DNA of 64,000 bases, from contig NC_092375.1 of NCBI RefSeq assembly GCF_030028105.1, positions 158,967,415 through 159,031,414 on the forward strand, in the 5' to 3' direction. Position 1 is the stretch's first letter. Every line of letters begins with the position of its first letter. Origin of the DNA: Mobula birostris. Lineage: Eukaryota. Below the pieces are notes generated by a model. The model saw only the letters and a program-made list of their open reading frames with translations, had not been told where the DNA came from and did no database searches. The translations under genes were made by a program, and so were the position numbers. Of the stretch, positions 2,980 to 17,034 are shown piece by piece.

Positions 2980-3680
2980 TATTGAATTGAATTGACTTTA
3001 TTACTTACATCCTTCATATATATGAGTTGAAGTCCATTACACCTCCATCTAAATGTGCAATGTGCAATTTATAGTAATTTATAATAAATAGTATGTACAA
3101 TAGGACAGTCAATATAACATAGAAATACAGTTGTGTCAGCATGAATTAAGCAGTCTGATGGCCTGGTGGAAGAAGCTGTCCTGGAGCCTGCTGGTCCTGG
3201 CCTTTATGCTGTGGTACCATTTCCTGGATGGTAGCAGCTGGAACAGTTCATGATTTGGGTGACTCAGGCCCCCAGTGATCCTTTGGGCCTTTTTTATACA
3301 CCTGTCCAGAATAGTGGGAAGTTCACATCTACAAATGCGCTGGGCTGTCCGCACCACTCTCTGCAGAGTCCTGTCATTGAAGGAGGTACAGTTCCCATAC
3401 CAGGCAGTGATGCAGCCAGTCAGGATGCTCTCAATTGTGCTCCTGTGCAAAGTTCTTAGGATTTGGAGGCCCACACCAAACTTCTTCAACCATCTGAGGT
3501 GAAAGAGGCACGGTTGTGCCTTTTTCACCACACAGCCAGTACATACAGACCACATGAGACCATACCGTAGTACATACATGGCCTGTATGTACAGACCACC
3601 ATGTCAAGGTGATAACTTCTTCTCTGTAGGTTGCCTCATTATTATTTGAGATTAGTCCAATCAGTGTAGAGTTGTCAACA
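2980..3680 (-). mobile_element. Rex1/Babar-type LINE, 3' fragment
   Basis: ORF 3136-3579: ESILTGCITAWYGNC...LQRVVRTAQRI...LFQLLPSRKWY...TSRLQDSFFHQAIRLLN, the typical C-terminus. (ATTGA)n tail. Confidence 0.9.
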
Positions 3681-3749
3681 AATCACATATCACAAATGTG
3701 AGGGTGCCAGCAGCTGCACACTGAACTAATGGAGGGAGAAGAGTATAAG

Positions 3750-4800
3750 AATCACAGAGTAATAGAGCACAACAGTACAGAAGCAGACCCTTTTGTGCAT
3801 CTATTCCGTGCTGAATGGCTATTGTGCCTAGCCCCGTCAACAAACACCTGGTCCATATCTCTCCTTACCCCTCCCATCCATCCGTATCCAAACTTCTCCT
3901 ATATGTTGAAATCAAACCTACATCCACCACCTCCTCTGGCAGATGATTCCACACTTACACCACCCTCTGAGTAAAGAAGCTCTCCCTCAGGTTCCCTTAA
4001 ATACTTCACATTTCTGCCACAATGGGGTGCTGGGAACGGACCCAAATGCGAGACACAGACACTGAAGTACTAGGAACAGGACTTGACTAGAATAGGGATG
4101 TGACAGGATACAGACAAGGAGCAGGGACAAGAACGCAGACTTGGGCTAGGGCATGGACAAGACAGGGACCCCCCCCCCCCCGCCCCGCAGGGCAACGGCA
4201 AAACAGCCTGACTTTCCCTCCGTGGGGTAAGAACAAGAAGAGACAAACACCAAAGAACGACAAACAGATCCATCTCTGCTTCGGGGTAGCTCCGAGTCTC
4301 AGTTCAGCCAGCAACCTCAACTGGCTATGGAAACAGCTGGATCCCTACCTAGCTCAGAGTGGCTGGCAGCCACTCAGCTGGCCTGGGAAACAGTCAAATC
4401 TATACCGCAAAGACAGCTCCAACTACTGACAGCAAGGCTCCAAGGGGGGATGATTTGGCCTACATCATCCCCTAAAGATGGCAAATGGCCACTTTAGCCT
4501 TCCATTGGCAGGTTACTCCCAGGGGAACTTGACAAAACAAACCAGCAGCCTACACTTAACCCCAAGGCTACTTATATTCCAAGCCCCAAGATGGGAATCA
4601 GGTGCCTAGGATTAACTCAACCAAACTAGGGACAGCTGGAAGACCCGGAGTCCTGAGTCCACAGACTGGACTGTGAACTGGAATGCAGACTTCATGGAGA
4701 GGACCATGACAATTTCACACTTAATCTATGGCTTCTCATTCTAGTTTCACCGAAACTCAGTGGACTAAGCCTGTTTGCATTAACCCTATCTAAACCACTC
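3750..4800 (-). mobile_element. CR1 LINE 3' end, split by a solo LTR
   Basis: CR1 3'UTR/tail sequence continues on both sides of 4015-4711. Confidence 0.75.
4015..4711. mobile_element. Solo LTR with 5-bp TSD
   Basis: Termini TGCCAC...CATGACA, flanked by ATTTC at 4010-4014 and 4712-4716. Confidence 0.8.
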
Positions 4801-5224
4801 ATCATGTTGAACATGAAACAGGTGTACTTGGAACATCTAGACAGAGGGAGTGTGAGTGATGCACACTGAACATCTGGAATATGTAGAATTGACTAATCTT
4901 GACATTTTTTGATTTATTGATTTCAATTCTGCTTTCAAGTCTACTGCTATAGTGTTGCCACTTAATGCTGCAGCTAAGAATCATGGCCACACAGGGATGA
5001 GCTCATACCAGCTACAGGAAGCACCATGTAAATGGCCACCACCTATTACAGGTTAGTTGCTGGATGATTTACGGTATGGTACAGTTCAATCAGTGTTTGA
5101 TGCTCTGTGATACCAGTGCAGGTTGCTGTTCTCTACAGGGCCATTCAGAAATTCTGCTGATCTCAGGCTTCTGTACAAACATGTTCTTTAATATGCATTC
5201 TCCTCTGAGTACAGTGTGAATTTA

Positions 5225-5700
5225 GGAGATAGAACAGTAAGGTACAAGTACAGGCCCTTCAAGCCACAATGTTGTGCAAAACTAAAATAGTAATTAAATG
5301 CCTAACTAAATTAATCCCTACAATCTACACAATGTCCATATTCCTCCATTCCCTGTACATTGCTGTGCCTCTCTAAGAGCCTGTTCAATGCCTCTATTCT
5401 ATTTGCATCCACTATCACCTCTACGTGGACATTCCAAGCACCCACCATTCTGTAGTGTAAAAATCTCACCCCACACATCTCCTTTGAACTTACCAAGACC
5501 TCACCTTAAATGTTCCCTGGTACTGAGCATTTCAATGCTGGGAAAGATACAACGGCTGTCTATCATTATCTAATAAACCTGTTCTGTCCTCGACCGCTCC
5601 AGAGAAAATAACCCAAGTTTATTCAACCCGTCCTTATAGCACATGCTGTCTGATCCAGGCAACATCAGTTGGCATGCTTTTCAAAGTCTCTATCCTTCCT
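5225..5700 (-). mobile_element. Old CR1 3' fragment
   Basis: RMVGAWN...VDAN...LER...QGMEEYG (ORF 5311-5496). Confidence 0.75.
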
Positions 5701-5933: not shown

Positions 5934-6886
5934 TGTGATGGTATTGGGTTTGTTGACAAAAGTTCTAAACTCAAGTGAAGACATTAAGCCCTATCTGATA
6001 TTGATAGCTACAGGTACCCTCACTAAACAGAGTTTATATTGTAACTACCCAATCTTCAAAGCCTAGTTCACTTCATGGTAAGTTTTACTGCTAATACCCA
6101 CTAGTTGAATGGTGGGCCAGCACCCACTACGAAAGAGGAGGTGCTTCCAGATAACAAAGTCACTTAAACAGGGTTCATTTATTTTCAGTGGTACACATTT
6201 AAATCCAAACAACATTCTTAAAACATTTTAAAACTCACAAAGGATTTATATCTTATAAAAGATTTCCAAATTACATACCATTTCTAAAATATAAAGGAAA
6301 TCCAAGACACCGGTACAATTCCTATAAAAGTTAAGAAGGCATTCCAATAAATTTTTACCGCAGAAATCAAAGGCAGAGGAATGGATTCCAATTCACCGTG
6401 TCTCTGTCATTCTTCCTGATGTTTCTGGACTATTCTTAAAATGCCTGGACTGCTCTCTTCACTTATACTGTTTCTCTGCCACTTGGTTGACTCCACACAT
6501 ATGACATCAGATACCTTTTAATACAAGAGTTCTCAAACCTTCTGGAGACAGAAGTCCCAGGTGCCCACAATAAATACTGCAAAGCTAACTTCCTGAGCAC
6601 AGAAACCTTCCCACTATTAATAGATTAGCTATTTGATATACTAAGCGATAATATTAGTCTGGTCTGCAAACTTCCTTGAACTAACCAAATAGGCCAATGT
6701 TGTCTGTTTTGAAATGATTCATTGTCTTGCACTGCACCTCTTGAGCAATAAGCCCAGGTGCTGTGGGCCAGCAATTCTGTGGCTCTAGAGACAGTGGGTT
6801 TGCCGCAAAGCTGTCTTTTCAACTTCAAAATGATTACTGCTTGGCCACTTACACGAAGAACTGAAAACTGGCTCCCATTTATGTAT
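5934..6886 (-). repeat. 3' LTR of the foamy-like ERV
   Basis: Starts TGTGATGGTATTG on the + strand, as does 15137. Collinear similarity for ~950 bp. Minus-strand AATAAA (~6178-6183) and TATTAAAA (~6516-6523). The U3 boundary is uncertain. Confidence 0.85.
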
Positions 6887-6957
6887 TACTGTCTTGAGTA
6901 AGGATTAGTAATCTCACATTTCAGTTATAGAAAATTATATTCATCAATTAACTGCTT

Positions 6958-7221
6958 TCACAATATAAAAATAATCTGTACAAAGAAAGTGAAATATTTA
7001 TGGAGATAATCTGTCTCTTTATACTGAATGTAGTAAGATAAGGAAAGGCACAGTTCTCCTATTGAGGATTCTGTCTGTATTTTTAATTTTGAATGCCCAG
7101 AAAAAGATGACAGAACATTGGAGTTGGTTATGTTCTCTTTACATTGGAGAGAACACCCACTGGTATGCTGTAGCTTAGCATTTTGATACCAACCATACCA
7201 TCTGTATAAGTTTCTTGCCAT
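6958..7221 (-). CDS. Possible second accessory ORF of the ERV (87 aa, unknown)
   Basis: ATG-started open frame just upstream of the 3' LTR, in viral sense. No recognised homology. Confidence 0.3.
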   Translation of the reverse strand: MARNLYRWYGWYQNAKLQHTSGCSLQCKENITNSNVLSSFSGHSKLKIQTESSIGELCLSLSYYIQYKETDYLHKYFTFFVQIIFIL

Positions 7222-7264
7222 TTTCTAGTCTCTGGGTATAATCATCCAGCTCTTCCCTCTCTTT

Positions 7265-7820
7265 ATTAAGGACTGGGCCGAAATGAGGAGATTTGATATA
7301 TCTTCCCAACTTCCGTGTTTTCCCAGAGGGCTACTCAGTGTGTTCTGTCAGACCATGGGATTTTATCAATCAAGTATACAAACTGTTCTTGTAGTATTAA
7401 GTCTAACACAAATAGCAGTATTGATAGGCCCTACTCGTAGTGTTGTAGACGTATCACATATACAATATATGCCTATACCCAAATTGAAAGTGAAACACCA
7501 TCAAATAGTTTTACTCTACTCTGTGACAATATAATGCTTTTTAGGCCTTAGGAGCACTAGGATTACATTGCAATTTCCAAAGAAATCGTAACAGAATAAG
7601 TAAAAATGTTAACAAGAATATAGCATTTCCTAGGGTAGCTATCTTTCTGCTCCTGGTAAGACTTTTACCACTATATAACACAATACATAAGATAGAGTAA
7701 GAAAGTAAAAGTGCAAACCACAATAGTATAAACCATCATTAGTAGTGAGCAACATATTTACAAAGAACATCATATAAAGTCTAAACAACCATATAATATA
7801 AGTTAGAAAGTAAATATGTA
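7265..7820 (-). pseudogene. Putative viral accessory ORF, multi-pass membrane protein (frameshifted)
   Basis: Lies between env and the 3' LTR. Consecutive hydrophobic segments: YFLTYIIWLFRLYMMFFVNMLL, WFILLWFALLLSYSILCIVLY, NAIFLLTFLLILLRFLW, and GLSILLFVLDLIL further on. Confidence 0.5.
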
Positions 7821-8045
7821 CTGGAGGTGTTTTTGCCAACACTGTCTGACTGTGGACTTCCTGTCAAGAACAGGAATCCAGTTACAGAGTGAGGTGCTGA
7901 GACCCATTGAGGGCAGTTTATCGAGCAACGCACACAAAGTACTGCAGAAACTCAGCAGGCCAGGCAGCATCGATGAAAAAGAGTACAGTCGACGTAACGG
8001 GCTGAAGTTACCCACCAGCTTCTGAGGGATGATCGTATTAAAAGA
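7820..8045 (-). mobile_element. Internal Rex1 RT fragment with a nested Penelope-terminus fragment (~7925-8005)
   Basis: FNTIIPQKLVG / MGLSTSLCNWI / GSPQSDSVGKNTSST. The nested piece reads CACACAAAGTACTGCAGAAACTCAGCAGGCCAGGCAGCATC. Confidence 0.75.
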
Positions 8046-8049
8046 TTTT

Positions 8050-9860
8050 GAACAACTTTTGTCATGAAATCTCTATCTTCCGAGTGAACCAAAGGACCAC
8101 ATCAATGCTATTATGAGGGAGATCACTATCAAGGCAGGGCTGTACAGGCAGATTTACTCCAATATTTTTTTTAAAATCATGAAAATTGTTAAGGGCAAAA
8201 TTGAATGACTATTACCACCTGTTGACAGTAACATCATGCAATTGAAGACATAGCAAAATGAAGATTTGTCTGTGTGTGTACAGATTGCCTAATTTGAATT
8301 AGTATTATCAGTGCTATCCCAAAATTTAGCATTATCAAATAGTCTGTAAGAGTAAAAATTGTTATAGCTTTATTTCCTGTTTTCCGAGTTGTTGTTGAAA
8401 CCTATTGGAAATATAATTGGATTCGTAAGGACGCCAACAGTTCAGAAATAATCTTCATTATAAAGTATTATTTGCACCATGGCACAAAAGGTTCATGATT
8501 CTTTGATAAAAGGCAAGTAGGAAATGAGGGTAGATACAATCGTCTATTGGACTAAAATCTCTAAAAAGCTTATTGAAATTTATCAGTTTCAGTTTCAAGG
8601 ATGAAAACATTTTTGCTTTATCTTACCTTTTGCTTCAGTGCCTCTTTCCATGTCATCTTCAAGGGCTTCACTGAACCACATAGAAAATAAACCAGAAAAT
8701 TGTCATGTTACCTTAACATTTAACAATGGAGTGGCCATAGTTGGAATAATGGAAATGTTTAAATTCTTTGTGGTAGGTACAGAATGTTCATATATTTTTG
8801 ATCATAAAAGGGGAAGTACAATGTGGTATCAGTCTAATGTAGTAGAGTCTTCATTAAAAAATGGTTTTACACAGTCTTCTAGTCCAATGGTTTTAATGTC
8901 ATGTTTCCATGAGTGGGATCATTCAATGCCATAACAGTATCTATATTTTCCTCAAGTGTACAGGGATCCACATCAATCTATTCTCCTATTAGCTTAACTT
9001 CAATATCTGGACTAGAAACTTTCAGTTTTGTTAGGGTGTTATTAATCATTCTCGCAACTCATTCTTAGTCATGTATCATGTATCAATGATCATTCTGTCT
9101 GCAACATGGTCAGAGTGAATGTTTAAGTGGATGAGAACAATAACTGCCAGAGGGAAGTTTTAAGGGTTCCAGTTTTTTTTTTGCATATGACTAAGGACAT
9201 TTGATGATACTTAAATGAGAATTGTCATTGCTCGCAGAGCTTCTTAATCTAATATTCCCCGAATCATTAAGATTAGGAGTGTGAAAGACAGATGATACAA
9301 TTTCCATACTAAATGTGACTTCATCTACTAAAAAGCCAGTGGTAAGTAAGGCAGCACTGACTAACATTGTTATAAGCACAAATATTAAAAGTAAAGAGCA
9401 AGAGCAACATTTCTTTCGAGAGTTTGAGAGTTTAATTCTTTCTTTGTAATCAAAAAACATATAGAGTCATAGGGTCATAGAAAAGTACAGCACGGAAACA
9501 GGTCCTCCGCCCCATCTAATCCATGCCGAGCCACTTAAACTGCCTAATCCCGTCAACCTGCACGAGGACTATAGCTCTCCATACCCCTACCATGTACCTA
9601 TCCAAACTTCTCTTAAATGTTGAAAACAAGCTCACATGCACATTTTGCATATGTTATCCCTGGGTAATATATCAATGAGATCTTCCTCAAGTGAACAGGA
9701 AATTTTGAGTTAGCTTTCTTTTTCACTAAACATGAGTTTTATCTTTGCAATACATTTCACCCCCACGTTCCTTCAGGGTATAGGAGTTCCATGGCAGACC
9801 CATGTACTGGTCCAATATAAGAGTTCCAGTGAGTCTGGAAATAAATCCTGTTGGACCAGG
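8050..9860 (-). pseudogene. env: Foamy-type env remnant (leader peptide and SU; TM not found)
   Basis: ORF 9191-9460 has a basic/Cys stretch, a long hydrophobic domain (SLLLIFVLITMLVSAALL) and a degenerate furin-like IRLRS. Downstream KTSLWQLLFSS resembles RVLGLSQILMINS, and KYRYCYGIE..SW..LEDCVKP resembles EFANCYLVK..PW..ADQCPLP. Confidence 0.72.
9463..9647 (-). mobile_element. Short CR1 3' end inserted in env
   Basis: GTCATAG repeat tail. CATAT duplicated at 9458-9462 and 9648-9652. Confidence 0.8.
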
Positions 9861-10010
9861 TGTGGTGTTAGCTATGGAGACAGTTTTACTTACAGCCTTA
9901 CTTCCCCTTCTGGTCCCGATTACCACAGTCCTATCATTGATAACCTGAGTGATGAGACAAGGAGGTGGGCGTGATGGGAGATTTCTAATTTCCTCAATAT
10001 TGATTGGCAT
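9860..10010 (-). pseudogene. Integrase C-terminal domain, separated from the core by a CR1 insertion
   Basis: PCLITQVINDRTVVIG..KTVSIANTTP vs PFV PSTVLKVLNPRTVVILD..RTVSIDNLKP. Confidence 0.85.
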
Positions 10011-12272
10011 CTCCCTAGGGCAAGGGGTTTAGAAGGAGTGAAATTTGTTAGATGTGTTCAGGAAGGTTTCCTGACACAATATGTGCATTAGCCTACAAGA
10101 AGAGAGGATGTACTTGACTGGTATTGGGAAATGAACCTGGTCAGGTGTCAGGTCTCTCAGTGGGAGAGCATTTTGGAGATAGTGATCACAATTCTATCTC
10201 CTTTACCATAGCACTGGAAAGGGATAGGAGCAGACAAGTTAGGAAAATGTTTAATTGGAGTAAAGGGAAATATGAAGCTATCAGGCAGGAACTTGGAAGT
10301 AAAAATTGGGAGCAGATGTTCTCAGGGAAATGTATGGCAGAAATGTGGCAAATATTCTCGGAATATTTGTGTGGCGTTCTGCATAGGTACTTTCCAATGA
10401 GACAGGGAAAGGATGGTAGGGTACAGGAATCATGGTGTACAAAGGCTGTTGAAAATCTAGTCTAGGAGTAAAGAAAAGCTCACGAAAGGTTCAAAAAAAT
10501 AGGTAATGATAGAGATCTAGAAAATTATAGGGCTAGCAGGAAGGAGCTTAAGAATGAAATTAGGAGAGCCAGAAGGGGCCATGAGAAGGCCTTGGTGAGC
10601 AGGATTAAGGAAAACCCCAAAGGATTCTACAAGTATGTGAAGAGCAAGAGAATGAGACCTGAGAGAATAGAACCAATCAAGTGTGACAGTGGAAATGTGT
10701 GTATGGAACCGGAAGAAGTAGCGCAGGTACTTAATGAACAAGGTACTTTGCTTCAGTATTCACTAGGGAAAAGGAACTTGGCAATTGTAGGGATGACTTA
10801 CAGCGGACTGAAAAGCTTGAGTACATAGACATTAAGAAAGAGGATATGCTGGAGCTATTGGAAAGCATCAAGTTGGATAAGTCACCGGGACTGGACGAGA
10901 TATACCCCAAGCTATTGTGGGAGATTGATGTGCCTCTGGCAATGATCTTTGCATCATTAATGGGGACAGGTTCCGGTGGATTGGAGAGTTGCAGGTGTTG
11001 TCTCTTATTTGAGCAAGGGAGTAAAGATAGCCCAGTGAGTCTTACTTCAGTGGTTGAGAATGTGACTAAACACATTGATAAAACTGGAGCAGTAGATGTA
11101 GTGTGTATGGATTTCAGCAAGGCATTTGATAAGGTACCCCATGCAAGGCTTATTGAGAAAGTAAGGAGGCATGGAATCTAAGGGGACCTTGCTTTGTGGA
11201 TCCAGAATTAGCTTGCCCACAGAAAACAAAGCGTGGTTGTAGACAGGTCATATTCTCATGGAGGTGGGTGATCAGTGGTGTGCCTCAGGGATCTGTTCTG
11301 GGACACCTACTCTTTATGATTTTTATAAATGACCTGGATGAAGAAGTGGAGGAATGGGTTAGTAAATTTGCTGATGACACAAAGGTTGTAGGTGTTGTGG
11401 ATAGTGTGGAGAGCTGTCAGAGGTTACAGCAGGACATTGATAGGATGCAAAACTAGGCTGAGAAGTGGCAGATGGAGTTCAATCCAGATAGGTGTGAGGT
11501 GATTCATTTTGGTAGGTCAAATATGATGGCAGAATATAGTATTAATGGTAAGACTCTTGGCAGTGTGGAGGATCAGAGGGATCTTGGAGCCCGAGTCCAT
11601 AGGAAACTCAAAGCTGTTGCGCAGATTCACTGTGTTGTTAAGAAAGCATATGTTATATTGGCCTTCATCATTCATGGGATTGAGTTCAAGAGCCAAGAGG
11701 TAATGTTGCAGCTATATAGGACCCTGCTCAGACCCCACTTGGAGTACTGTGCTGAGTTCTGGTCACCTCACTACAGGAAGGATGTGGAAACGATGGAAAG
11801 CATGCAGAGGGGTTTTACAAGGATATTGCCTGGATTGGGGAGCATGCCTTCTGAGAATATGTTGACTGAACTTGGCCTTTTCTCCTTGGAGCGGTGGAGG
11901 ATGAGAGGTGACCTGACTGAGGTGTGTAAGATGATGAGAGGCATTGATCATGTGGATAGTCAGAGGCTTTTTCCCAGGACTGAAATGGCTAACACTAGCT
12001 GCTTAGTTTTAAGGTGCTTGGAAGTAGGTACAGTGGAGATGTCAGGGGTAAGTTTTTTATGCAGAGAGTGGTGAGTGTGTGGAATGGGCTGCCGGCGACA
12101 GTGGTGGAGGCGGATACAATAGGGTCTTTTAGGAACTCTTGGATAGGAACATGGAGCTTAGAAAAATAGAGGGCTATGGGTAACCCCAGGTACTTCTAAA
12201 GTAAGTATATGTTGGGCACAGCATTGTTGGCCAAAGTGCCTGTATTATGCTGTAGGTCTTCTAAGTTTCTAT
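10011..12272 (+). mobile_element. CR1 LINE, 5'-truncated and internally deleted, inserted in the viral integrase
   Basis: GDSDHN (endonuclease), [35 protein letters not shown], and a 3' tail. Confidence 0.95.
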
Positions 12273-12279
12273 AGAAACT

Positions 12280-13300
12280 AGAGTCACATTTATTTTTATG
12301 AAATTTCTTTTCTTGGGCTCAGTCCCCATTTTGTAGTATCTAAACTTTCTTGTCAGGTTCGTTGTCATTGTCTTGCTTTCTCTTTATTCCCATAAACTCT
12401 CAATTCCTTGAAGAGAGCTGTATCAGGTGTAGGTGATATTTGGCCTGAGCAAGTGATCAGTGATGTATTTAGGTGGAAACTATACATTAAGAAATAAGGC
12501 ATAACATTTTTGTATACGGTTTTTTTGAAAATGGCACTTTGTTTGGTGACAGTTGCACTTTAGGGCCAGCTTTCAGCATCCAGAGTAGACCAATCTTGCT
12601 AGGCCTCCTTAATCTCTCTCGATTCCTTTGCTCCAGGATGCTACTCAATTGGGGTTTTAATGGAGTGCTGTACCCCTCTTGTATGCCTGTTTGTTCACAC
12701 ATGGATTGAGAGTCTTTAACCTCAGTTGGCATGTATACAGGTGGGACTATAGAGTTTTAGAGTGCTGTGACGGATGCAGCCTCACTACAAGCAGTTGCGG
12801 AGACTAACCAGGTATGTATATCCTGCACAAAGCTCAACTATCGGGAGAATATACTTATTAGGCTTTAAATAAGGTAGGTTGCCTTGGTATGCCAAAAATG
12901 AGATCTATATAATCAACTTGCCACACCTACATTGAAGCAGTTGATTTTGTTTGTCTCATAGGAGGTGATGTTGTCACTGCTCCTTTCTTATAGGCCAAAC
13001 ATTGTTTACAATTTGCAATGAAGCACTTACAATCATTCAACATGTAAGACCACCAGCATAACATGGCTAATTTCACATGAGTGGCTCATCTGCCACCATG
13101 ATCGTGCCTAAGTCCTCAGTGAGCTTCTCAGATCAGTGCTTTGTGCTTGTGGGCAAGAGGTATTTGCTTCTTGTCGTTTTTAGGGTGGCAAACCCAAACC
13201 TTATCTTCACCATCAGCTTCATATGTGTATCATGTTGGAAATCCTTTGGAATTGAGTTTAGTTACATCTAGGAAAATTCTTAAAACGTCATTCTGGTTAT
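12280..13300 (-). pseudogene. Foamy-like integrase (N-terminal extension, HHCC, core)
   Basis: YTYEADGEDKVWV..IP..HKALI*EAH..HGGR*AT..LCWWSYMLND..NCKQCL vs PFV YTYFLEDGKVKV..IP..RQKIVLQAH..HTGREAT..LYWWPNMRKD..RCQQCL. GIQEGYSTPLKPQLSSILEQRN vs [22 protein letters not shown]. Confidence 0.9.
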
Positions 13301-13339
13301 TTTTTATTTGTTGCTTAGTTACTACCAAAACTCTGACCT

Positions 13340-14830
13340 CCCTTACTGAAGTAAGGTCCATCCTGACAGCTTGTTTTGCTTATTCATCAGCTAATTATTG
13401 CTATAGCTGTATAAGTAGCCTGCAGTATGCCCTGGGGTGTGCAACGCCTGTACTAATGGTTGTCAGTAAAAATTCATAAATATTCTTCCACGTGGACAAG
13501 TGTGGAAGCAGTTTACCGAAGCAAAGGAAGAGATTTTCTTAGGTCTCTTGTCTAGGGATCTATTGCTTGCTGAACTGCATTCATCAATGTCACCAGGTCC
13601 TCATAATCTTCTCGGGTATAAACAAAAAGCTATTAATTTTTCAGCGTACATCTGCTGTATAATGTTTTGGCAATTCAGCATAGTTAGATTTGAAAGCTGT
13701 ACCATAACTCAATATGTTTAGCTTTGACTGCAAAGCATTTAGGGTCTTTGGATATCTTACTTGAGTGACTTTTTGTCTCAATTTAGTGTTAAACCACATC
13801 CCTAATTGATAATCATCATCCTTGATTGAAATGTACTTCTATACGACAGAGTTAGTTGAGATGTTCTGTTGTTGATTACATAACCTTCGTCTGTCAACCT
13901 TTTAACGATAGTCTCAATCTGTGTTAAATACTCATCCAGTGTGTTGGCTGTGAAGCATGCACCATCAACACATGCACAAATATCTGGTACTCCCTGTAGA
14001 GGCTGAATGACTCCAGCAGAAAATAGTTGTGGACTATTCCAAAAAAATTGTGGGAGTCTGCTCAACTGATGTCATGAGTCATTGGGTTCTGTAAAGGCTG
14101 TGTAATATCTATCACTTTCAAGAGGTACTGTCGGTGTGACCAGAAGTCATTGGCCAGACTCAGGGAAGACTTATATACTATACAAGTTAATCCTTGCAGC
14201 ATTTTTTTATAACGTCCGTTTCTGGGCTGAACTGGGTTCTGTGCGTTCATCCAGGACGATGTAATAGATGACCAATCATCATCCATCAGGATTTGCTACG
14301 CTGAACATGTGTGAGTTAAATCAAGAAGGGTCTTTTACCAAAATACCTTGTTTACAAAGGGAGTTTACAGTTTCCTGTAGGGATTGCTTTCTGGCCTGGG
14401 AAAGTATTGGATCCTAATTTAATCTGTTCTACGGCAACAATCCTACAGTAGTTAGGATGTTATAGGTCATCATAATACTGTACAAAATATGTTTCAGTTT
14501 TATTCTTATCATTTATCCTGATAATAGTTTAGCCATTTTTGAATATGTATGTCCTACACAATGCTGTTGCATTGGCTGTTTGATAGCAATACGAATCTAA
14601 CAGCAAGTGCTGATTTATTATGATCTACGGCAATCTAGTCTATGAATACTTCCATTCTTTGCTGTACGGGATCTTTATAAGTTGGGCACTCTACCTCGTT
14701 TCCATACATGCATCCATTTTAAATTTTCCCTGTCAGGCCCCCCTAATTTATCTCCTTGAATAATATCAGAATTTAACATTGAAATATCTGCTGCTGTACG
14801 AAAACAGCAGGGTCATAGAGCAGGGCTTGG
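13340..14830 (-). pseudogene. pol: Foamy-like pro-RT-(partial RNase H) pseudogene
   Basis: Protease remnant RTAADISML (DTGA-like). NSLCKQGIL..NSHMFSVANPDG vs PFV DDLLKQGVL..NTPVYPVPKPDG. YKSSLSLANDFWSH vs YKTTLDLANGFWAH. SRLPQFFWNSPQLFSAGV..CVDG vs TRLPQGFLNSPALFTADV..YVDD. YPKTLNALQS vs PPKDLKQLQS. RNase H C-terminus WKNIYEFL..LADE*AKQ. Confidence 0.9.
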
Positions 14831-15116
14831 TCTCTCTAGTCTGCATCCTATTCTATTTTCTATCCCTTCATCATTACTTGAAAAATAAAATATCCATCAT
14901 GTTCAATTTGAGGAGCAGTGAGGTGTTATCTCATATTTCTGCCGTACTATTAACATATTCAAGATATTGACTAACACTTGCCTGCACAACTATTGGAAGC
15001 AAGATGTCAGCTGTTCTGTAGCAGTAAGTGCAGGGCCATAGCACTTGTCAAGAGCATTCTGAATTGGACTACTGTTAAATAATAATTGTTCCTAAAATAA
15101 TACTTTTCGTATAACG

Positions 15117-15134
15117 TGACCACGTCAGCAGCCA
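15117..15134 (-). promoter_or_regulatory. Primer binding site, degenerate tRNA-Lys1,2-like
   Basis: TGGCTGCTGACGTGGTCA lies 2 nt after the LTR. It matches TGGCGCCCAACGTGGGGC at 11 of 18 positions, with the same TGGC-N5-ACGTGG spacing. Confidence 0.6.
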
Positions 15135-15136
15135 AC

Positions 15137-16076
15137 TGTGATGGTATTGTGTTTGCTTACCGCAAAAGTTCAAAATTCAAAAACAAAGACCTTAAACCTT
15201 ATCTGATATAGACAGCTGTGTACCCTCACTAAAACTACCCAATCTACAAAGACTAGCTCCTGTTTATCCTCCCTGATGAGGTTAGCTGCCAATAGCCACT
15301 ATTTGAGCAGTGGGACTCCAATCCCTACCATGGAGGAGATACTTCAGTCTACAAGAAGGTTTAAACACAGTCCATTTATTTTCATTGGTACATTTTTAAA
15401 ACACATTTGAAACTCACAGAGGATTTCTATCTTGTAAAAAAATACCAAATTACAAACCATTTCTAAAACAAAAAGGAATTCCAAAGCACAGTTACAATTA
15501 CTGTAAGCTAAGAAGACACATCAGCAAATTCCTCACTGAAATCAAAGACAGAGGAATGGATTCTAATTTGCCCTGTGTTTCTGTCATTTTTCTTGATGTT
15601 TCTTGATCATTCCACAAAGTCTGAACTGCTCTCGTTATTTATGCTGTTTCTCTTGGTTGACTTCAGACCTATGTAATATATATTTTTCAGATACCTTTCA
15701 ATACAAGTGCTACGAAAGCTTCTGGAGACAGAGTACCCAGGTACCTACCATTATTGCTGTGAAGCTGACTCCCTGAGCACACAAATCGTCCAATTAGTAA
15801 CTGATCAACTATTTGATATGTGCAGTGATAATATCTATATGGCCTGCAACCTGGCTTGAACTAAACTTAGCCAGCATTGCTTGTTCTGAAAAAAGCTGAA
15901 TTACATAAATCATTGTCTTACACTACACCTGTGAGCAATAACCCCAGGTGCTGTTGCCCAACAAGTCTGAGGCTCTACAGACAATGTGTCTGTTTGCGAA
16001 GCTGTCCTTTCAATTTCAACCTGTTTATTGCTTGCTATTTGCTCGGAGAACTAAACACTGGCTGTGGTTTATGACA
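15137..16076 (-). repeat. 5' LTR of the foamy-like ERV
   Basis: Termini TGTGATGG...TTATGACA. Paralog of 5934-6886. Abuts the PBS. Confidence 0.85.
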
Positions 16077-17034
16077 AGAAGCTAAACAATGAGTATTGTT
16101 TGGAAGTTTAACTTATTGAAAAACTGGCTTTTATAAGTGTCACCTGTTGTTATGTTTAGAAAGAAGAGCATTGCAAAAAAGAAAGAGACCTCTTGGCCCT
16201 ATGTAGTAACTATTCCAACAGAAGGTGACCATGATCATGAACTTTGATACATGTAGGTTCCTCTTGGAGCTGCAGGTCTTAATACGTGCCTGAGGCAGAA
16301 GAGATTCCCATCCCATGGCCTCCTGGTTTATGGGAATAGGTGGCAGATAAATATCGTGATGCTTTTATTCTGCAGCAGCTTGTGCCTGATATTCATCAGT
16401 AACTTGTTTATCATTTTTATACAGTACTCCTCAACACAGTCCTTTTTTTTTTGCTGAAACATGAATTTGAGAATGAAATTACTTATAGGCTTATAATGTG
16501 ATTGTTACCCAACTTGGTAATACCCTCTAAATTGAAATTGCTAAGTGCTTACAATTGTAGCATTATCATGAGATGGCACTCTTTACCCCATGTCAGCTGC
16601 AACTTCACAGCACAGACTATCAACCAACAACTTGGCTTACATCCTTTATGAACATATATTCACAGGTGGACAGTGTGCATGCCGCAAAATCTACACAAAA
16701 TCTGTCAAAGAAGTCTGTTGACATGATGAAACAATGTTTTCACTGTAGGGAAGCTCAGGAAGAACAGATCTTGGAGCAGTAAGGTTGAGATGTCTTACTT
16801 CCTACAATGCTCCGCAGCTTTCAAAGGTATTAAGATATAGCTGTCAGCACAATTCTTCAGTGAACAACTGAAGTAATGGAACATGAGGATGAGGAGAAGA
16901 AAGAGGGGGAAAAGTAAGCAGTCCCTTTCTGTCACGCTGTCACCTGAACCTGCTGTAGCAGGTATGGCCCATATCCCCATGAAAACAGAAGGCATGTAGA
17001 AATAAAACCTACCACAAATTAAATCATTCTGAAC

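Follow-up and report, generated by a model that had tools for sequence, protein, structure and literature searches.

The window, a 64,000-nucleotide stretch of Mobula birostris DNA (NC_092375.1, positions 158,967,415 to 159,031,414, forward strand), contains an old foamy-like provirus that is a foamy-like endogenous retrovirus (FLERV) by the clade of its reverse transcriptase (RT). Its parts lie on the minus strand in the order given by a preliminary description of this DNA: primer binding site (PBS), protease, RT, integrase (IN), env-like region and accessory-like region. Three dispersed repeats interrupt the element. The direct repeats at its ends are a pair of long terminal repeats (LTRs), as had been proposed, with 70.8% identity across 983 alignment columns and a local alignment score of 816, where 50 shuffles reached at most 40. 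They had been described as ~940-bp repeats at the ends of 5934..16076; the pair is real, but the 5′ LTR starts at ~16220, not at 16076.

The 5′ LTR (15137..16220, minus strand like all proviral parts given here; start +/- 2 nt) is ~1.08 kb long with TG...CA ends. Other copies of the family align to ~16213, starting TGTGATGG, and solo LTRs measure 1.11-1.17 kb. Next come a decayed PBS (15117..15134) and the leader with the first ~60-70 gag codons (14812..15116), delimited by column maps of natural copies and a leader probe. At 14806..14815 lies the junction of a deletion, called class A below, that removed ~1.5 kb of gag and the protease N-terminus through an in-frame joint with 8-9 nt of microhomology; this loss at ~14810 had been overlooked. 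The protease remnant (14480..14805) has a decayed catalytic motif. The RT (13528..14400), identified by tblastn with feline foamy Pol, by profile and by trees, carries stops and frameshifts, and the motifs earlier quoted as LANGFWAH and RLPQGFLNSP actually read SLANDFWSH and RLPQFFWNSP in the window. A copy-specific deletion of ~0.7 kb (13517..13528), where ~700 nt are present in other copies, took the connection domain and most of RNase H, which had been read as present. The RNase H end and IN follow (12273..13517), IN with its N-terminal extension, HHCC motif and core; besides the structural match given below, this piece matched Pfam Integrase_H2C2 (E 1.8e-7).

A later long interspersed nuclear element (LINE) insertion on the plus strand (9975..12272; ~84% identical copies in 35 loci, RVT_1 match E 1.5e-4) separates this piece from the IN C-terminal domain (9833..9966), for which the Pfam SH3_11 match is weak (E 0.09). 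The 5′ part of env (8050..9833) comprises a long N-terminal segment, a hydrophobic helix and a cysteine-rich part resembling a surface unit, and is split by a short repeat (9463..9640, no strand assigned; 17 matches in 17 loci). A second short repeat (7820..8045, likewise without strand) sits at a copy-specific deletion of ~0.95 kb that removed the env end with its membrane anchor and the start of the accessory region. All three insertions, formerly taken for later LINEs, are indeed dispersed repeats (in 35, 17 and 36 of the 59 other loci compared) and the large one has an RT match, but the other two are short repeats. The accessory-like region (6890..7805) holds short, partly hydrophobic frames that matched no known family and had no Pfam match. 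The 3′ LTR (5934..6883) lacks ~150 bp of its start and the polypurine tract (PPT). The window copy, presented before as well kept (~7.5 kb, with enough architecture), is not near-complete: most of gag, most of RNase H, the env end and the PPT are gone.

Across the family, the ~1.9 kb after env (window 6890-7805; loci L048, L036 and L056) contains two or three short frames, of which the first are strongly hydrophobic. The accessory genes of teleost FLERVs are reported to lack membrane segments (PMC5210030).

Placement in the foamy clade is carried by RT, IN and Gag. A profile of 28 natural single-frame RT pieces scored 146 bits with foamy Pol in the PDB, against 56 with cauliflower mosaic virus, 48 with Ty3 and 33 with murine leukaemia virus. 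Its best database matches were a catshark protein, teleost elements, feline foamy Pol and P0052, a protein on a Logan contig of 10,956 nt; long arthropod Gypsy matches also rank high, through several summed stretches. In a tree of 32 rows (24 of 56 were dropped for run time, and it holds no named lokiretrovirus, coelacanth or reptile sequence), five family RT pieces formed one clade (100/99) nested in the foamy clade (99/98), adjoining feline foamy Pol, P0052 and catshark P0001 (90/91). A second RT tree gave the foamy clade a support of 99 and again placed P0052 and catshark P0001 as nearest RTs (SH-aLRT 86). Grouping with gamma- and epsilonretroviruses was rejected by the approximately unbiased (AU) test (p=0.0003), as was grouping with teleost-type FLERVs (p=0.019). 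Ty3/Gypsy membership is rejected by a separation at 100/99, and the one ERV-L-like reference lies outside the foamy clade. Lokiretroviruses have an RT that is sister to all retroviruses and an Env like paramyxovirus F. Two observations lean away from them: the env pieces gave no Pfam fusion-glycoprotein match, and the RT is nested in the foamy clade of a tree that holds no named lokiretrovirus.

The IN piece of the window matched only prototype foamy virus (PFV) IN in the PDB, N-terminal extension included, aligned from residue 25 (E 2e-10); it had no match in the protein database. Gag pieces of other copies matched Pfam Gag_FV_central (PF20672, E 1.7e-6) and newt Gag (93%, E 3.3e-7), and no Cys-His box occurs in 17 Gag rows. 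The PBS fits host tRNA-Lys(CTT) over its first 15 nt, with CpG decay, while its final 3 nt deviate in nearly all 29 natural stretches set against the host tRNA-Lys(CTT) genes; the Lys1,2 type named before holds over those 15 nt. The earlier assignment to the foamy clade is upheld by RT, IN with its extension, Gag and PBS, and the tree it had called for shows no grouping with Gypsy or with gamma- and epsilonretroviruses. As a separate observation, G000 carries clusters of tRNA-Lys(TTT) genes and of matches to the tRNA-Lys(CTT) 3′ end at C17:95.15-95.28 Mb and C6:83.20-83.33 Mb.

To describe the family, the 4.0-Gb genome was searched with RT, gag and LTR, which gave 164, 178 and 3368 first-look candidates; 40 of each were scored. 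Besides the window, 59 loci were compared (39 RT-selected, 20 gag-selected). The copies are spread over many contigs, diverge by ~22% at non-CpG sites and sit in unrelated flanking DNA. Their LTRs are ~1.13 kb long with TG...CA ends, and at 15 of 16 LTR matches examined no internal DNA adjoins. At these 15 LTRs a 4-nt target duplication was perfect in 4 and retained at 3 of 4 nt in 6; perfect 4-nt duplications also flank 2 proviruses. A purine-rich but decayed tract precedes most of nine 3′ LTR starts, where Spumaretrovirinae have GGGTG at the PPT-LTR border.

The LTR pair of the window has a Kimura two-parameter (K2P) distance of 0.253, or 0.238 without CpG sites, and the median over 9 copies is 0.234. 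Depending on the rate assumed (PMC4422223, PMC10699275), this would correspond to ~55 Myr (mammalian rate) or ~240-250 Myr (0.5e-9). With the rate of 2.2e-10 given for ghostshark the result would be >500 Myr, which was rejected as implausible. Contigs of three of four other organisms span the LTR-host junction at 97.6, 94.7 and 91.4% identity. Because this far exceeds the 70-75% identity between paralogues, the insertion is older than the splits of these three organisms. Such orthologous insertions provide markers and minimum ages for foamy-like viruses of cartilaginous fishes, for which the literature examined gave pol fragments (in ghostshark, pol only) and one teleost-type family (in catshark). 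Catshark PR-domain exons match at 86-87% amino-acid identity, which makes an elasmobranch host likely, in a comparison made without a control. No younger foamy family appeared among the 12 best feline-foamy-Pol matches taken from 60 listed.

Several sampled loci hold other features. Loci L146-L157 are younger retroelements, among them a class III-like group (6 loci), two gamma/epsilon-like elements, two Gypsy elements and an unplaced retroviral pair (L149, L154). In L014 the 3′ LTR is succeeded, near 7017, by another PBS and leader, suggesting a tandem provirus. L062 has a tandem duplication from the gag end to RT (element positions 3600-5300), L087 a 37-nt unit repeated ~7 times at the IN end (7970-8200), and in L051 (~7700-10000) a separate retroelement with long open frames sits in the RNase H region.

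Comparison of the loci revealed three shared deletion classes. Class A, which lacks most of gag and the protease N-terminus (~1.5 kb), has identical ends in at least 17 loci including the window, with 4 more compatible; its joint is in frame, and 10 of 12 scorable copies keep the same spacing. Class B keeps gag and has lost the protease and the 5′ part of RT (~650 nt), with a second RT deletion of ~215 nt; among the 20 gag-selected loci, at least 10 belong to it. Class C is a deletion of ~1.8 kb in 3 loci, and 5 copies are free of all three. The 5′ leader is kept in all classes and the 3′ part of pol in nearly all. For mammalian foamy viruses, packaging signals are described in these two places (PMC3705302). 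Env-region DNA is retained in all classes as well. The changes diagnostic of class B are 2 nonsynonymous in gag, 6 nonsynonymous and 1 synonymous in pol, and 8 nonsynonymous, 1 synonymous and 1 stop in env, numbers with low power for detecting selection. Singletons have nonsynonymous-to-synonymous ratios of 3.7-4.3, which fits neutral decay after insertion.

The fate of env differs from that of gag and pol. The family env ATG overlaps the pol stop (column tallies ATG 19, TGA 20), and env extends over ~690 codons to a hydrophobic end. Presumably env resembles the transmembrane end of foamy Env. Spumaretroviral Env is cut at two furin sites into leader peptide, surface unit and transmembrane part; the family env has a long N-terminus with a hydrophobic helix, and env homology amounts to a weak Pfam Foamy_virus_ENV match (positions 346-412, E 0.005), obtained on another copy at a fitting position. 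Majority stops of non-CpG type occur in 0 of 547 codon columns of gag and 0 of 1077 of pol, and in 7 of 632 of env. Three of the env stops are present in 24/29, 13/20 and 14/19 copies, spanning the deletion classes. It is likely that env was dead before the family burst, and a family that spread with gag and pol preserved and env lost likely did so inside cells. Env-deficient PFV retrotransposes within cultured cells (PMC3185757); the same source calls it open whether intracellular retrotransposition occurs in nature or is no more than an effect of env-deleted PFV vectors. With its dead env, absence of shared stops in gag and pol, and many dispersed copies, the family is likely a natural case of intracellular retrotransposition.

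The strongest competitor is repeated germ-line infection, in which an env-intact helper, exogenous or unsampled, packaged the env-dead and deleted genomes in the manner of defective interfering genomes. The retention of env-region DNA in every class would suit such packaging, defective PFV genomes are reported to spread in trans (PMC3814592), and trans-complementation has been suggested for the teleost FLERVs AciFLERV and AliFLERV (PMC5512871). However, none of the 60 loci is env-intact, and a shared extra viral env segment was not found in any of 48 env-region gaps. Copies without the class deletions also carry shared env stops (4/4 and 1/1), and the lack of shared stops in gag and pol sets these genes apart from env. 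We regard helper-driven infection as rather unlikely.

Read along the natural copies, column counts give a single open frame that runs from the leader across gag and on into pol. The majority stops in gag and early pol are all of the CpG-decay type except one TAG, which stands at the gag end in 13 of 17 copies. From this TAG to the protease Asp codon the distance is 75 nt in 8 of 13 rows, and in 9 of 13 it is divisible by three. An in-frame ATG common to the copies was not found between TAG and protease. The census of junction motifs was noisy and was not used for class counts. The simplest reading is that Pol was likely made by read-through of the stop codon. An in-frame stop between gag and pol is the layout described for gamma- and epsilonretroviruses and XtERV-S (PMC8278194). 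A separate pol frame with its own start codon, a trait of Spumaretrovirinae, was looked for; the copies show instead one frame, a shared TAG and no shared in-frame ATG. Because this feature is absent, we do not place the element in Spumaretrovirinae sensu stricto.

Mammalian foamy viruses are described as making no Gag-Pol fusion, and all foamy viruses studied as expressing pol from a spliced mRNA (PMC3185757, PMC3705302). Pol of this family could likewise have come from a spliced mRNA, with translation initiated on an upstream exon or at a non-AUG codon, and the TAG would then merely end gag. This agrees with foamy precedent and with the failure to find a read-through RNA structure, and the AG within the TAG could act as acceptor. 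On the other hand, purine-rich bases rather than a pyrimidine tract precede the TAG. The family also shows neither known separate arrangement, that is, neither the own Met with which teleost-type Pols start ~25-30 residues ahead of DTG nor the overlap of gag and pol in different frames found in newt (PMC5512871 supplement). Splicing is in our view an unlikely source of Pol.

A further alternative takes its cue from P0052, in which an upstream Gag-like region and a foamy-clade Pol occupy one called frame of 1687 aa; look-up of its N-terminal part returned generic retrotransposon Gag leads only. If a continuous gag-pol frame were ancestral, the TAG would be a founder defect, with Gag supplied by TAG copies and Pol by class A copies as complementing halves. 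P0052 groups with the family, the class A junction is in frame and removes the TAG, and in-frame Gag-Pol fusions are reported to support PFV replication (PMC3185757). However, the class A joint costs ~19 protease residues ahead of the catalytic motif, and the TAG stands exactly at the gag-protease border, where the read-through stops of class I endogenous retroviruses and XtERV-S lie (PMC8278194) and where a random defect would rarely fall. Complementing halves are improbable, and read-through of the TAG remains our preferred account of Pol.

The deletions themselves may have arisen by template switching at short direct repeats, as their joints lie on repeats of 8-9, 3, 9 and 6 nt. That they are recurrent events at the same repeats, or copies made by segmental duplication or gene conversion, accords with the position of every joint on a 3-9 nt repeat and with the lack of a detectable class A clade, but is very improbable given that class B copies have two separate deletions in common and form a cluster by distance (0 of 500 permutations), that the copies are dispersed and diverged as described, with their own target duplications, and that the remaining deletions in these alignments are each confined to an individual copy. 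Of the two class B deletions, the first (e.g., at locus L053 near 4157) has GT..AG ends and causes a frameshift within the protease site; a copied splice, of the kind known from delta-Tas, may lie behind it, and the 3-nt repeat explains it equally well.

Taken together, the window copy is a decayed, gag-deleted provirus of an ancient family with foamy-clade RT, IN and Gag, dispersed by insertions with 4-nt duplications and present at an orthologous position in other organisms. The preliminary description had passed over the family traits, namely the in-frame gag-TAG-pol arrangement, the family-wide death of env and the shared deletion classes. We think it probable that these traits belong to one history, in which Pol would be produced by read-through of the TAG at the gag end, template switching would generate the deleted genomes, Gag and Pol would be supplied in trans by copies without these deletions, and the family would multiply without an extracellular phase after the death of env.

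Several observations weigh against this account. At the junction, 2 of the eight rows with the 75-nt spacing contain an in-frame ATG of their own, and the RNA fold past the TAG gives no support for read-through (-5.5 kcal/mol; among 6 copies, a double change at 1 of 20 pairs). Distances within class A are not smaller than those to undeleted copies (p=0.12), as expected if the burst came shortly after the deletion, but compatible with recurrent deletion as well. The loci were picked for their likeness to two copies, with 40 of 164 and 40 of 178 candidates scored, which biases the class frequencies. One env stop is missing from both undeleted copies that cover it (0/2), some of the 7, situated close to frame changes in the column map, may be artefacts, and env profiles had no match in the PDB. 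The Pfam score of Gag is 28.2 bits, below the cut-off of 30, and the Gag profile had no match in the PDB or the protein database. Finally, the ends of the window copy show no target-site duplication (CTTC vs TACA).

By textbook accounts, foamy viruses are marked by expressing Pol separately (PMC3185757). A foamy-clade element with a gag-stop-pol arrangement, beside the unbroken frame of P0052, places the change inside the clade and can be tested with short natural junctions. More tentatively, and as a possibility only, we propose that a foamy-clade virus made Gag-Pol by amber read-through, that spliced, Gag-independent pol expression is not clade-wide and likely arose or was lost within the clade, and that the family in addition exemplifies, in nature, how a foamy-like virus can become an intracellular retrotransposon, its defective subfamilies, some retaining Gag and others Pol, having spread in parallel. 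The literature examined reports no foamy-clade element with an in-frame gag-stop-pol and no such deletion classes; its coverage excludes subscription papers and the supplements of PMC10699275 and PMC5210030, which may hold relatives.

Among known systems, the family resembles Spumaretrovirinae (feline foamy virus, PFV) in its RT clade, the IN N-terminal extension and a Gag central domain without Cys-His box, and further in its Lys-type PBS, long LTR, 4-nt duplication, long env N-terminus and accessory region before the 3′ LTR. It differs from them in that a single frame with a TAG carries both gag and pol, without an AUG for pol, and in that env has ~690 codons and shared stops where the profile has 982 positions. 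Its accessory frames are unmatched, and its genomic copies are very numerous, in contrast to the rarity ascribed to endogenous foamy viruses (PMC3705302). In P0052 the gag-pol border lacks a stop; it and catshark P0001 are long branches with ~30-40% identity, and the likeness between family Gag and the Gag-like part of P0052 was not significant. With the fish and amphibian FLERVs (AciFLERV, AliFLERV, DrFV, NviFLERV and CmiFLERV; PMC5512871, PMC5210030) the family shares its endogenous state, the foamy RT clade, the 4-nt duplication and a QQGR-rich Gag tail, but it falls outside the teleost-type clade and, with an LTR distance of 0.24, is far older than AciFLERV and AliFLERV, both dated to <2 Myr. 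In ghostshark pol alone was found, whereas all genes are mapped here. Catshark ERV-Spuma.0-Sca (PMC10699275) is likewise a multi-copy foamy-like endogenous retrovirus of an elasmobranch, but it is reported with AciFLERV and AliFLERV, a clade rejected for our family, and is set apart from it here by that description and not by sequence. In the arrangement of gag and pol as one frame split by a stop, the family is like gamma- and epsilonretroviruses and XtERV-S (PMC8278194), although its RT does not group with the gamma- and epsilonretroviruses.

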